Sequence record: MW057918
Strand: one strand, 5' to 3'
Length of the DNA stretch: 45,053 nt
Origin: Escherichia phage Msk
Shown here in pieces: positions 33,102-39,299 of the stretch (positions are counted from its first letter, which is position 1; the number at the start of each line of letters is the position of its first letter). The notes under the pieces are model-generated. The model was not told the DNA's origin and ran no database searches. It saw only the letters and a list, made by a program, of their open reading frames with translations. A program made the translations under genes and the position numbers.

Positions 33102-34685
33102 TCACCCCAGCAGTCGTGGATTAATGTAAACTTTATCACCAATCAGGCACGTATAGTTTTTCTCATCAAGCATTGGTAGTAAGTGGTCTTTAATCTTCGT
33201 CATTACTCCCGCTTGACCCTCGAACGGCTTAACCTTGCGAGCAGCTTCATATAGAGACCGGATGCCTACTACGCCTTTCCCATTTTTTACTTGCTTAATC
33301 AGAATATCAATCAGCTTATTCATCTCTGCATTGTCGCCAGCGTGACCCGCAGCGTTGGCAGATGACAAATAAGTCTTGCTAAGTTCCTGGAACATAATTA
33401 CAGCTTCCTGCATTGTATCAAGCTCAATTTCTCTCGACTTCTGAGGGCTACCGCCATTTGGGTTGAACCAGTTACGCACAGTGTGAAGAACCGCCGCAAT
33501 CCTGATTGCCTGCTTATCGAACTTACCCAACGCGCCTCGCAACATTGTGTGTGAATACTTCCCGCCGTCAGCAAGGTGCGGTTCCATTTCCTGACGAGCG
33601 CGGTTGAGATATTTCATTGCTGAATTACTAACTGTCAACTTAACTTCTTGCTCATTCATTATCTCGTGAACTAAACGGAAGTAATCAGCCTTCAACCCGG
33701 CATCAATTGGCTCATAAGTCGATTCGCCATTTTCATCAACGAATACACGCTCGCCCAGGAGTGACTTTTCACGTACAAGCAGGAAACGCTCAGATACACC
33801 GATACCACGCGCGCCAGCGTTCATGATAGCGTTGATTGTCTCATCCTGCGCAATTACAGAGATGCAACCCATAGCTACGAAGCTCATGTTGTTTTCAGCG
33901 TTAGCACGAGCGATAGATACGTTGCCAGCATCCCATGCCTTCAGTACAAGCTCGCTGTTCGTTTTCTTTGATCCGTCACCATAGGTCATGCCAAGTAGTG
34001 AGTTTACACTCGTTGCCTCATCCGAGATTACTGCAAAGTTACCCTGACGATTGTTTATTCGCGCAAGACCTTCCGGTGTGGTATCTGAAACCGGGAAAAC
34101 GATATCGCATAGTTTCTCGAGCTTTTCCTCAAGATCTTCTTTCTCCTCAAAAAGCGATTTCATCTCAGATGGTGACTTTTCCTGCTTCATCTCTTTGGAT
34201 AACGCAGATAGTTTAGCCATAATCTTTTTGCGCTCGCGCTTTCGAACTTCATTCAGTCGCTGAGTCTCGGCAATCATTGGCGCAATAGAAAGTGAGTTAA
34301 TTGCTGATTTACCAGTCGATGGTGGCTGACTCGTTACGACGTAAAGCGAGGTTGGCTGCTGAGTTCCGTGATACTCTACGGTAAAACGTCCAAGCATGGC
34401 AGCGGAAATACACCCCAGGAAGTGCATGTATGCGGACGACTCCGGGAATTGCACGCTCCGAGCAATGTTAGCTGACAGCTTACCAACAACATCAATATCA
34501 TTTCCGAGTGATATTACAGGGTACTTATCATTTGCCGCATCAATCTCGACAGGAGCCTTCCAGAATGATTGAGACTGGCGATAGCCATTTGCATTAATAG
34601 CGACGCGCAAAGGTGGAAGGTTGTCTGCGGCAGCAATTGCCATAACCTGTTCAACAGATAGTTTATCTTCGTTGAAATCAAACAT
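33102..34685 (-). CDS. P-loop NTPase of unknown function (possible replication-associated ATPase, DUF3987-like)
   Basis: Walker A-like SQPPSTGKSA and Walker B-like FAVISDEATS; N- and C-terminal segments duplicated in pseudogene 37864-38283. Confidence 0.4.
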   Translation of the reverse strand: MFDFNEDKLSVEQVMAIAAADNLPPLRVAINANGYRQSQSFWKAPVEIDAANDKYPVISLGNDIDVVGKLSANIARSVQFPESSAYMHFLGCISAAMLGRFTVEYHGTQQPTSLYVVTSQPPSTGKSAINSLSIAPMIAETQRLNEVRKRERKKIMAKLSALSKEMKQEKSPSEMKSLFEEKEDLEEKLEKLCDIVFPVSDTTPEGLARINNRQGNFAVISDEATSVNSLLGMTYGDGSKKTNSELVLKAWDAGNVSIARANAENNMSFVAMGCISVIAQDETINAIMNAGARGIGVSERFLLVREKSLLGERVFVDENGESTYEPIDAGLKADYFRLVHEIMNEQEVKLTVSNSAMKYLNRARQEMEPHLADGGKYSHTMLRGALGKFDKQAIRIAAVLHTVRNWFNPNGGSPQKSREIELDTMQEAVIMFQELSKTYLSSANAAGHAGDNAEMNKLIDILIKQVKNGKGVVGIRSLYEAARKVKPFEGQAGVMTKIKDHLLPMLDEKNYTCLIGDKVYINPRLLG

Positions 34686-36640: not shown

Positions 36641-36970
36641 ATCTATACCCTCGTTGTTGGTGAGTTAACTATAGCCTCGCCACCAGCACATGTCTTTAGC
36701 AAAAAGTGCTATTCATTAGATTTATGTATTGTTGCATATATTGCAATGATTCACATGATTATTGCACATACAGCAATATTGCTTCAGATGCAATGATGTT
36801 TTTGATTGTTGCGGATTGAGCAATTAAGTGGTGAGTGAGTGAATGAAAGATGGATGGACTACCATACAAGTTGATTTTGATTCTTGCTAAGCTACTTTCA
36901 CGCATACACGTTATAAAAGTTATGCCGTGTAGATGCGCCAGCTCCCCGTTGGAATCATGTACGTCTATCA

Positions 36971-37073
36971 CGCTAAATTACGCAATGGTTACATAATAAT
37001 ATCTATATATATCAACCATTTAGTACTATTATTATTATTATTATTATATACGCGTATATAATGTATATAGTGG
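36971..37073. repeat. AT-rich intergenic block with (TTA)6-7 microsatellite and TATACGCGTATA palindrome; homologous to 17611-17706
   Basis: Shared tatctatatatatcaacc-(tta)n block; palindrome atatacgcgtatat seen directly. Confidence 0.6.
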
Positions 37074-37342
37074 ATATTGGATATTGCGATAGTTTTCTAT
37101 GATTTTTTCCTACAAGTGTAGGAATTGGATGACACTGTAGGAATAAATAGGCATATATGGGCCAATGCTCCATGAAAGCCGATGTACAAGCTATACGCAG
37201 TGGTTACATTGAGCTATATCTGGGGTTTGGAACTGAAAAGCGTAAATAAATTGAATTCAACCATAAATAACAATTGATAACATGTAACCTCAATGATACC
37301 ATGCACCCATCTTAACGAGAGCAACCAATCAGGAGTATATCT

Positions 37343-37864
37343 ATGTCAAATCGCATTCAACCAGTAAGCCTTGGTGATGTTATCCGCTACATGGCTAAGC
37401 AGGCACTTAAGGCCGACAACAGGACTTTTCATGCTCCAATCAATCTTATAGCTCGCCAGGTTTACGGGCTAACGTCTGATGATATGGGTCGAATCAGCGC
37501 TGAGGATCTAGATAGTGGTGGCAAATACAGCCTGGCAAAGCTGAAGGCTTCATATGTCTCTAACACGGTTGCCAGGATGCCAGAAATTCAGGCGGCGAAC
37601 GTTCGGGCTAAGCTGTCAATCAAGGACGGAGACTTCGGGGATGATGTTGATGTTCGATGCGCATACATCACCTTGGTTGATGGGGCAATACAAACGGGAA
37701 GGAGAGTTAAAGCCAACAATCAGATTGCACAGAATGCGGTGAACGACTTCAAGGATAGAATCCTTAAGCTGATGCCATCTGTGACAGATTTTGAAGGAGA
37801 TGAGATTACAGGAGCAATCAAAGCAATCAAGATGTACCAAGAAATGATTAAGGAGACAAAATAA
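37343..37864 (+). CDS. Hypothetical protein
   Basis: 173-aa ORF, first gene after large AT-rich intergenic region. Confidence 0.45.
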   Translation: MSNRIQPVSLGDVIRYMAKQALKADNRTFHAPINLIARQVYGLTSDDMGRISAEDLDSGGKYSLAKLKASYVSNTVARMPEIQAANVRAKLSIKDGDFGDDVDVRCAYITLVDGAIQTGRRVKANNQIAQNAVNDFKDRILKLMPSVTDFEGDEITGAIKAIKMYQEMIKETK

Positions 37865-38283
37865 TGGGGATGTTTGATTTTAACGAAGATAAGCTGACTG
37901 ATGATGAGATTATGAAGATTGCCATGCGGGACGGGCTTCCACCGCTGCGGGTTGCTATCAATGCCAATGGCTATCGGTAATCACAGAGATTCTGGTGCAG
38001 TGTTGAGGAGTTGCTAAGCACAAAACTCAGCAGTAAGTTAGGTGTGGTTGTGCGCAAGATTCACGGTCAGAGCAGGAATGGTAAAGGGGTTGTAGGTATT
38101 CGATCAACATACGAAGTGCTGAGAAAGGTCCAGCCATTTGCAGGACTCGGCGGGGTCATGTATGACATGAAAAACAACATCCTGCCATCGCTACAGGACG
38201 CGGGAATCATCTGCTTAATAGGGGATAAGATTTACGTTCATCCATACGTAGTGGGCATGCATGCGATAGAAGTTGAAGAGTAG
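37864..38283 (+). pseudogene. Nonsense-mutated, internally deleted paralog of the 33102-34685 P-loop ATPase gene
   Basis: N-terminal 38 codons match MFDFNEDKL...PPLRVAINANGYR of the large gene then TAA where the large gene has Gln; same frame continues into a C-terminal segment matching NGKGVVGIRS...CLIGDK(V/I)Y. Confidence 0.6.
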
Positions 38284-38411
38284 TGCAAAGACTGGGATGA
38301 AGGTGAGCGCGCTAGTAGACTACCATACCACTTGCGGTACAGTGAGGAAGAGGTGGAGAAGGCCATCGAGTTCTTCCGGAAAGCGAAAGCTCTCCTGAAT
38401 GGTGAATATTA

Positions 38412-38627
38412 ATGCTTATAAAATGCGTTTACGTAAGGCAAGCCAATAGCCACAACCTTTCAGTTGTAAATGGCGGGATATACGTAGCTAAGCCAATACC
38501 TTGTTTTAATGGCTCATACCACATCAAGATTGATGACAATGAGTACATAGTAAAGACGGTAGGTGAAGCCCTCATGATAAAGAGCCTAGGTATCATAATG
38601 GCTAAATTCGAAATCGTTAGCAAATAG
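38412..38627 (+). CDS. Hypothetical small protein
   Basis: 71-aa ORF; stop codon lies inside motif copy at 38622-38641. Confidence 0.4.
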   Translation: MLIKCVYVRQANSHNLSVVNGGIYVAKPIPCFNGSYHIKIDDNEYIVKTVGEALMIKSLGIIMAKFEIVSK

Positions 38628-38668
38628 CACGAATTGCTAAACAATGGATCGGGTAGTCAGCTATGATT
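38622..38668 (+). promoter_or_regulatory. Motif-class promoter (CAAATAGCACGAATTGCTAAA, 22 bp, TATGAT)
   Basis: Perfect motif, hexamer at 38663-38668, leader taccccatcgacaacaaagagg. Confidence 0.5.
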
Positions 38669-38697
38669 ACCCCATCGACAACAAAGAGGAAATTAAG

Positions 38698-38886
38698 GTG
38701 ATTAACCTAACTGATGATGAGTGCATTGCTGTAATAAAGGTTTCTAAGTTGATGAGTCAAAGATTTGACACGCTTTCACTAAAGCATGGTTTTGCCTGGG
38801 AGATTTTTGATGATCATGTCAACCTGGATGACTTCATGTCAGCATCTATTAAGATTAAAGAATATATAAAAGAGGTGAGTGAATAA
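38698..38886 (+). CDS. Small ribbon-helix-helix-like protein, paralog 1 (GTG start)
   Basis: GTG after AAAGAGGAAA; INLTDDECIAVIK N-terminus resembles the two downstream paralogs; ATG at 38644 rejected because it sits between motif and -10. Confidence 0.35.
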   Translation: MINLTDDECIAVIKVSKLMSQRFDTLSLKHGFAWEIFDDHVNLDDFMSASIKIKEYIKEVSE

Positions 38887-38887
38887 G

Positions 38888-39079
38888 ATGATTACTATCA
38901 ACCTGTCAGAGGAGATGGCTGCCGACCTTCTTGATTCGCTAAGCCTGGTCAAAATTCGCTACGGAACTTACCACAGAAGCGAATCAGTAAAGGAGGTGGT
39001 AAAGCAAGTTAAGCAGCAGGTCGGAGTGGTCAAGATCGAATTGCAGAACACCCCATACGATTTTAAGAAAGGTGAATAA
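38888..39079 (+). CDS. Small ribbon-helix-helix-like protein, paralog 2
   Basis: ATG at 38888 after GAGGTGAG; N-terminus MITINLSEEMAADLLDSL has RHH-like beta-strand/helix pattern. Confidence 0.4.
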   Translation: MITINLSEEMAADLLDSLSLVKIRYGTYHRSESVKEVVKQVKQQVGVVKIELQNTPYDFKKGE

Positions 39080-39080
39080 G

Positions 39081-39299
39081 ATGATTACAATTAACCTGTC
39101 AGATAAGCAAGCAGCAGAACTGAAGTCCATGCTGTCAATCTTTGAGAAGCCAAATGACCGAGCAATTTCAAAAGAGGTTATTACTCAAATCAACAACCAG
39201 CAATTCGACGTAAGTGACTTCGAGTCATCACGACAGTACGAGGCGCTTAGCGTCAATGCGGCATACCTGACTAATTGGGATAAGGCGACTAATAAATGA
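39081..39299 (+). CDS. Small ribbon-helix-helix-like protein, paralog 3
   Basis: Identical start context AGGTGAATAAGATGATTAC; N-terminus MITINLSDKQAAELKSML. Confidence 0.4.
   Translation: MITINLSDKQAAELKSMLSIFEKPNDRAISKEVITQINNQQFDVSDFESSRQYEALSVNAAYLTNWDKATNK

Follow-up and report, generated by a model that had tools for sequence, protein, structure and literature searches.

Positions 37864-38412 of the window (the whole 45,053-bp stretch of DNA that was analysed) very probably hold a recently inactivated, dispensable accessory gene, itself an old, motor-less derivative of the two ends of the phage's replicative helicase. The annotation of this region is corrected accordingly: two "hypothetical proteins" and an adjoining unannotated stretch represent three pieces of one disrupted gene. 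The corresponding family, phrog_7327, was previously of "unknown function" and can now be described as a probable motor-less derivative of an MCM-like helicase composed of N-terminal helices, a winged helix, and a tail, which provides a testable hypothesis for a widespread early gene of the Drexlerviridae. The OzMSK pseudogene itself is ordinary, and the origin of its family and the clustering of lesions at seams within the gene are of modest interest.

The window is the complete genome of vB_ecoS_OzMSK (record PQ659294.1) in rotated form, with window position equal to record position plus 36,771. OzMSK is a T1-like siphophage (Drexlerviridae, Braunvirinae) that differs from phage MSK by 9 nt; it is a highly virulent laboratory contaminant, was responsible for an outbreak of lysis in BL21(DE3) cultures, and was sequenced with Illumina technology to 557-fold coverage (PMC13035648). 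The text and supplements of that paper make no mention of the open reading frames (ORFs) of the short gene or of its stops (PMC13035648). In GenBank record PQ659294.1, the locus is represented by XLM52719 and XLM52720, both termed "hypothetical protein," while the tail-encoding stretch carries no annotation, and XLM52720 covers only positions 38050-38283 of the second fragment, from a GTG start.

Organization of the interrupted gene

The short gene, its helicase paralog, and the associated features are as follows (window coordinates).

33102-34685, minus strand: putative parent paralog, a 527-aa DUF3987/SF6 MCM-like replicative helicase, T1 gp09-like (PF13148, E = 1.7e-41)
37343-37864, plus strand: DUF7174 gene (phrog_4841), upstream of the short gene
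37864-38412, plus strand: the interrupted gene in full (phrog_7327 allele of OzMSK), with 182 sense-equivalent codons and the natural TAA
37864-37977, plus strand: fragment 1, 38 codons with homology to the N terminus of the helicase (MFDFNEDKL...LPPLRVAINANGYR); GenBank XLM52719
37978-37980, plus strand: first premature stop, TAA in place of CAA (Gln39) through a C>T transition, from ortholog comparison
37981-38280, plus strand: fragment 2, 100 codons, linker and winged-helix domain (WHD), homologous to helicase residues ~437-527
38281-38283, plus strand: second premature stop, TAG in place of TGG (W140) through a G>A transition, from ortholog comparison
38284-38412, plus strand: fragment 3, C-terminal tail (...SRLPYHLRYSEEEVEKAIEFFRKAKALLNGEY), which is conserved and has a predicted disordered linker and helix
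40479-40556, plus strand: tRNA-Arg, anticodon TCT, the sole tRNA of the genome, located amid early genes

The plus-strand frame 37864-38283 translates as MGMFDFNEDKLTDDEIMKIAMRDGLPPLRVAINANGYR-stop-SQRFW...AIEVEE-stop. The first-pass annotation had placed the end of the gene at 38283, but this is the second premature stop, and the frame runs on without indels to the natural stop codon, TAA at 38410-38412, with the last 42 codons encoding the conserved tail. The three fragments match the phrog_7327 profile in order, at positions 1-36 (E = 1.4e-18), 49-131 (E = 5.3e-32), and 141-179 (E = 5.5e-6). Fragment 1 also matches the helicase profile phrog_2373 (E = 5e-5), and fragment 3 is recognized by a hidden Markov model (HMM) of the short-gene family (E = 1.5e-16). 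The OzMSK gene aligns without gaps to the intact orthologs FP_0002, bas03_0065, and that of PH1062, and its fragments are undamaged apart from the two stops.

The short gene sits in a rightward early operon, and its ATG overlaps the stop codon of the DUF7174 gene (TAATG). DUF7174 is encoded directly upstream of the short gene in all relatives in which the upstream product was identified (L054 to L057 and L074), and in the GenBank records checked the upstream coding sequence abuts or overlaps the short gene. This arrangement suggests that the two genes form a translationally coupled module.

Relationship to the replicative helicase

The frame 37864-38283 had been described in the first-pass annotation as matching both ends of the 527-aa protein encoded at 33102-34685, and protein alignment returned two significant blocks rather than chance similarity. 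In BLASTP comparisons, residues 3-50 of the short protein correspond to helicase residues 1-48 (32/48 identical; E = 1e-20), and residues 69-131 correspond to helicase residues 465-527, the end of the protein (35/63 identical; E = 4e-23). Helicase residues 1-51 and 437-526 are matched by the family HMM (E = 5.8e-52). Both proteins contain a fixed set of motifs, MFDFNEDKL, LPPLRVAINANGYR, NGKGVVGIRSxYEAxRKVxPF, and CLIGDKxY. The genes lie on opposite strands approximately 3 kb apart, as had been noted, and the absence of the Walker motifs and ATPase core is equally real: DUF3987 (Pfam PF13148) occupies helicase residues 81-430, for which the short protein has no counterpart. With its stops repaired, the short protein gave no match in Pfam and contains neither an AAA+ core nor Walker motifs. 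Judged from these alignments, the short gene is not itself a helicase but is paralogous to the helicase termini. The family HMM detected no further paralogs of the module in the window, its matches being the helicase and the three pieces of the locus only.

The separation of the two copies appears to be old. Nucleotide identity between the short gene and the helicase gene is ~70% in the N-terminal block and ~58% in the C-terminal block, which indicates an old divergence. Among 12 genomes, the helicase termini are nearly invariant, whereas the short protein has diverged to 50 to 60% identity between clades, and this difference also points to an old duplication. Co-variation of the short gene with the helicase termini was considered and rejected, as the 12 genomes contained no such signal, the termini being nearly invariant while the short gene varies.

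Intact orthologs and selection

In the closest GenBank relatives (vB_EcoS_FP, JulesPiccard/Bas03, and PH1062), a single intact ORF of 180 to 189 codons follows the DUF7174 gene. Approximately 106 phage records in GenBank contain a full-length match (tblastn), and each also encodes the long helicase. A search of 5.8 billion proteins yielded 326 protein clusters of the phrog_7327 family, and full-length proteins (173 to 192 aa) were present in 114 of the best 120 of these 326 clusters. A first single-protein scan of IMG/VR confirmed two loci, and an alignment-based scan was then used. At loci with both genes, the helicase is on the opposite strand, 2.5 to 3.4 kb upstream of the short gene, which is located directly 3' of the DUF7174 gene and is divergent from the helicase operon; this position is maintained in OzMSK. 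Members of the family, e.g., FP_0002 (QLF80565), bas03_0065 (QXV81892), and JK_46 of phage Jk06, are all annotated as "hypothetical protein." They share with OzMSK the position after the DUF7174 gene and the three-module sequence, at 83 to 95% amino acid identity for the closest. Unlike the OzMSK allele with its two premature stops, each is one intact ORF of 174 to 192 aa, and the OzMSK locus is not a single uninterrupted ORF of ~175 to 190 codons, as phrog_7327 members are.

Pairwise dN/dS values for the short gene are 0.1 to 0.2, both overall and for each module. Together, these comparisons indicate that the motor-less architecture is ancient and under purifying selection. The first-pass annotation had attributed the missing middle of the gene to decay through internal deletion and had regarded the locus as the fossil of a duplication or inversion in this phage. 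Neither proposal holds, since the motor-less form is the normal architecture of intact phrog_7327 orthologs and the relatives carry an intact, divergent small gene in the same place, which contradicts the fossil reading, as do the low dN/dS values of these syntenic genes.

The closest intact relative, P0001, is encoded on Logan contig L054 with 97.1% nucleotide identity to the OzMSK gene and matches phrog_7327 over positions 1-179 (E = 2.4e-71). At the two OzMSK stop sites, L054 has CAA and TGG, and each stop can therefore be explained by one transition (C>T and G>A, respectively). The proposal of a literal CAA-to-TAA change at a glutamine codon is borne out, as CAA is the L054 codon at 37978-37980. 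Gln occurs at the first site in the helicase and in all intact orthologs. Trp occurs at the second site in 24/24 aligned sequences, and W140 is nearly invariant (at least 90% of 79 proteins). The view of the locus as degraded is thus correct with respect to the nonsense mutation, but degradation is limited to two point stops, the second of which (TGG>TAG) had been missed. Changes unique to OzMSK comprise nine synonymous and 12 nonsynonymous substitutions, small counts that resemble those of some intact relatives, and divergence between OzMSK and L054 is 2.9% for the short gene and 1.1% for the neighboring gene. These values are compatible with a recent relaxation of constraint, although the counts are too low to prove it.

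Reality and consequences of the two stops

Both stops are genuine and do not result from sequencing error. A 1,637-bp Logan contig from SRR31488468 is 100% identical to the window over positions 37033-38669, both stops included, and gene calling on this contig gives the same split into 38 and 77 aa. As SRR31488468 may originate from the same laboratory, it confirms the assembly but does not necessarily represent an independent isolate. This contig and the 557-fold coverage exclude a base-calling error at the TAA, against which the first-pass annotation had cautioned, and the OzMSK lesions are substitutions at two separate sites, not homopolymer indels.

The base following the stop codon is T in both cases, and TAA-T is an efficient termination context in Escherichia coli. 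No convincing Shine-Dalgarno sequence with a start codon at proper spacing was found 3' of the TAA at 37978-37980, and comparison with the intact relative L054 indicates that no new start codon was created in OzMSK. Normal translation in OzMSK would produce at most a 38-residue N-terminal peptide, and termination at this point suggests a recent pseudogene. The high virulence of OzMSK in turn suggests that the short gene is dispensable on BL21(DE3).

Lesions in related phages

Interruption of the gene is not restricted to OzMSK. In a survey of ~45 distinct sequences inspected as DNA, independent lesions were found in 12 of ~45 lineages (OzMSK and 11 others), and differences in codons and stop types among lineages indicate that the events were independent. 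The lesions are as follows.

TR3 (L070): stop at codon 12
IME542 (L008/L028): TGA at Gly34 and a later frameshift inside the WHD
OzMSK: TAA at Gln37 in MFDF numbering (codon 39) and TAG at Trp138 (codon 140)
EC3a (L020), ETEP102 (L010), and metagenomic L056/L057: TAA at Ser38 in each
L046: frameshift at about codon 42
L055: TGA at Cys50
L038, the L019 group, and DTL (L014): stops in the linker directly before the tail
L035: TAA within the tail

The L019 group is represented by a genome of 44,219 bp that matches the MK9072xx vB_EcoS records, with E. coli DSM 12242 as the host. GenBank annotation of the broken relatives shows either a shortened ORF or a division into two or three distinct hypothetical proteins.

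The placement of the lesions was assessed by a scan in which columns were weighted by one-step-to-stop mutations and post hoc choice of the window was allowed for. Five of 12 nonsense events fall within one 5-codon window, codons 34 to 38 (P = 0.0045), and none of the 12 falls within the winged helix, which constitutes 42% of the nonsense target (P = 0.015), although both values come from a small sample and ignore kinship. Four further nonsense codons are located in the pretail linker. The N-terminal and C-terminal blocks of helicase homology meet at the first hot spot (profile position ~38/39), and the second hot spot is the predicted disordered linker. A general nearest-neighbor test of lesion positions was not significant (P = 0.13), and clustering looked stronger before TR3, L055, and L056 were added. 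Nonrandom placement as a biological pattern is suggestive only. Clustering of lesions is nevertheless not predicted by plain neutral decay and counts against a simple pseudogene reading. Truncations at the seams could be tolerated while partial winged-helix fragments are harmful, and the pattern could reflect either retention of function by the fragments or recurrent selection for loss. The OzMSK fragments may likewise retain some function. The placement of independent knockouts hints, with moderate evidence, at modular function or recurrent selection.

An association of lesions with laboratory or fermentation hosts was rejected. The gene is broken in OzMSK and IME542, both on BL21(DE3), and in DTL, with E. 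coli K12 as its listed host. It is intact, however, in JulesPiccard (K-12) and in TR1, which came from fermentation broth, and there is no consistent host pattern.

Alternative explanations

Selection for a split or truncated gene is an unlikely explanation. The N-terminal helices, winged helix, and tail would then act separately, stops at the seams would be tolerated or favored, and the gain could be, for example, escape from a host defense that senses the full-length protein or a change in regulation; OzMSK would still make a useful 38-aa N-terminal peptide and perhaps a reinitiated WHD fragment. Recurrence of lesions in 12 lineages at different codons and with different stop types is consistent with this explanation, as is the concentration of nonsense codons at the homology seam and in the pretail linker, with none in the WHD, and GenBank annotators called a ribosome-binding site and a GTG ORF for the WHD fragment. 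However, the annotated GTG would remove part of the first WHD helix in the structural model, and neither a convincing restart signal after the TAA nor a start codon gained relative to the intact relative was found. In addition, the IME542 frameshift inside the WHD represents true decay, the TR3 stop at codon 12 falls outside the hot spots, and the nearest-neighbor test was not significant, with a small sample and kinship ignored. The N-terminal helices and WHD are also predicted to form one domain, such that a free 38-mer may not fold. It is quite unlikely that the short gene is a terminal-module mimic for which recurrent breakage at the seams between its three modules (codons 34 to 38 and the pretail linker) is adaptive rather than accidental. 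If this were true, breakage could provide escape from host immunity that senses the short protein, or a switch between full-length protein and fragments could regulate helicase loading; the double-stop allele of OzMSK would be an outcome of recurrent selection and may bear on the success of this phage as a contaminant.

Highly improbable is a recent duplication or inversion of the helicase gene, with decay of the new copy in this phage by internal deletion and nonsense mutation. Paralogy, opposite orientation, and lack of the ATPase core are all real and speak in its favor, but the short architecture is intact, in the same position and orientation, in many divergent genera, the copies are only 58 to 70% identical in DNA, the short gene has an additional conserved tail that the helicase lacks, and the short-gene family is under purifying selection. 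A sequencing or assembly artifact concealing an intact gene is scarcely credible. Suspicion might arise from the presence of two hypothetical ORFs in a region annotated at hobby level and from stops that are single-base differences from an intact relative, but the depth of Illumina coverage, the nature and separation of the two substitutions, the identical SRR31488468 contig, and the occurrence of analogous stops in many other independently sequenced phages all argue against it. Programmed read-through or recoding, which would give full-length protein at a regulated level, is extremely improbable: although the frame is kept through both stops without indels and relatives have stops close to the same position, sense codons are found there in >110 ortholog clusters, stop identity varies (TAA, TGA, and TAG) at positions several codons apart, and both OzMSK stops are followed by T, as in TAA-T. 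The OzMSK genome also contains no suppressor tRNA, tRNA-Arg(TCT) being the only tRNA found. Recent inactivation of an old, motor-less accessory gene remains the preferred explanation.

Predicted structures and possible function

Sequence searches gave no PDB homologs for either the helicase or the short protein. An AlphaFold2 model of the helicase, built with 60 homologs (pLDDT 89, pTM 0.87), had 27 Foldseek matches in the PDB at E values of ≤1e-3, all of which were MCM subunits, and in this model the helicase core is MCM-like. From the N to the C terminus, the predicted modules are a group of helices, an AAA+ core, and a winged helix. DUF3987 proteins have been described as SF6 helicases with a C-terminal wHTH domain (PMC4889955), and a member of the family was biochemically demonstrated to be a helicase that binds its primase (PMC11724360).

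The short protein was modeled with AlphaFold2 from the intact ortholog P0001 and 79 family members (pLDDT 84, pTM 0.70). The model has a single compact region (residues ~10 to 141) in which short helices (13-23, 27-35, 38-43, and 47-51) precede a helix-strand-helix-helix-hairpin winged helix, followed by a disordered linker (144-153) and a terminal helix (161-178). The winged helix has the element order H-E-H-H-E-E in both models, and the termini of the helicase model show the same order of elements as P0001. Foldseek comparison of the P0001 model with the PDB gave nothing significant (best E = 0.13), the weak neighbors being consistently winged-helix domains (ORC/Cdc6, kleisin/MukE-F, and CRP/FNR). 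Comparison with viral models (BFVD) retrieved family members and T1-like helicases. Weak but significant matches in BFVD were also obtained to a T1-like "DNA primase" of Vibrio phage Vc1 (E = 2.6e-4) and to JK_55P, another small protein of Jk06 (E = 1.9e-5). Other replication proteins of T1-like phages may therefore contain the modeled helical and winged-helix module as well.

The preferred explanation implies the following history. The ancestor would have been the phage's own MCM-like replicative helicase, from which the entire ATPase motor was presumably lost long ago, with retention of the N-terminal three-helix segment (codons 1 to 38) and the C-terminal winged-helix domain (codons ~39 to 130) and probable gain of a short linker and an amphipathic tail helix. 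In the OzMSK lineage, the gene would then have been interrupted twice, at codon 39 (CAA>TAA) and at codon 140 (TGG>TAG). We infer that the intact protein is a helicase-interface mimic or regulator that acts via surfaces common to the helicase termini. Its partner may be the one bound by those termini (the primase, DNA, or the helicase ring or neighboring subunits), and early in infection such binding would modulate or imitate the loading or activity of the helicase. Loss of the protein may be tolerated, or even favored, in some hosts.

The short protein resembles DUF3987/SF6 helicases of the T1 gp09 type (phrog_2373) in the N-terminal ~45 and C-terminal ~90 residues (winged helix), for which the same secondary structure is predicted, but lacks the AAA+ core, has an extra C-terminal linker and helix, and evolves much faster than the nearly invariant helicase termini. 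The WHDs of MCM, ORC/Cdc6, kleisin/MukE-F, and CRP/FNR-type systems mediate contacts with partners or DNA. The helicase model matches MCM subunits and the weak neighbors of the short-protein model are WHDs, but unlike the C-terminal WHDs of MCM and ORC/Cdc6, the short protein is free-standing, has N-terminal helices attached, and has no significant structural match. T7 gp4B and phiX174 A* are shorter forms of phage replication proteins; they are made by internal initiation within the gene of the longer form and retain the motor. By analogy, they are conceptually similar to the short protein as shorter relatives with common interaction surfaces, but the short protein has no motor and is the product of a gene of its own, which is transcribed divergently.

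Other features of the locus and early region

The 3' tail of the short gene (38300-38408, ~110 nt) has 82 to 90% nucleotide identity, synonymous positions included, in many Braunvirinae in which the preceding part of the gene has diverged beyond the reach of megablast. In DTL, the tail protein sequence is 100% identical to that of FP, and the remaining protein is 59% identical. The tail may represent a recombination junction or an embedded nucleic acid signal; a consensus scan for promoters and terminators found nothing in 38300-38408.

The divergent intergenic region at ~36641-37342, between two divergent early operons, contains a perfect (TAT)7 microsatellite (37027-37047) followed by short AT-rich repeats, GTATATAAT (2.7 copies) and ATATTGG (3.4 copies). 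Position 1 of PQ659294.1 (window position 36772) is in the same intergenic region. Downstream of the short gene, the small genes at 38879-39079 and 39072-39299 (both plus strand) are adjacent paralogs (25/55 identical; E = 1e-8) whose products have identical N termini (MNKMITINLS...). Their counterparts in L054 carry DUF7180, and this paralogy indicates a tandem duplication in the early region.
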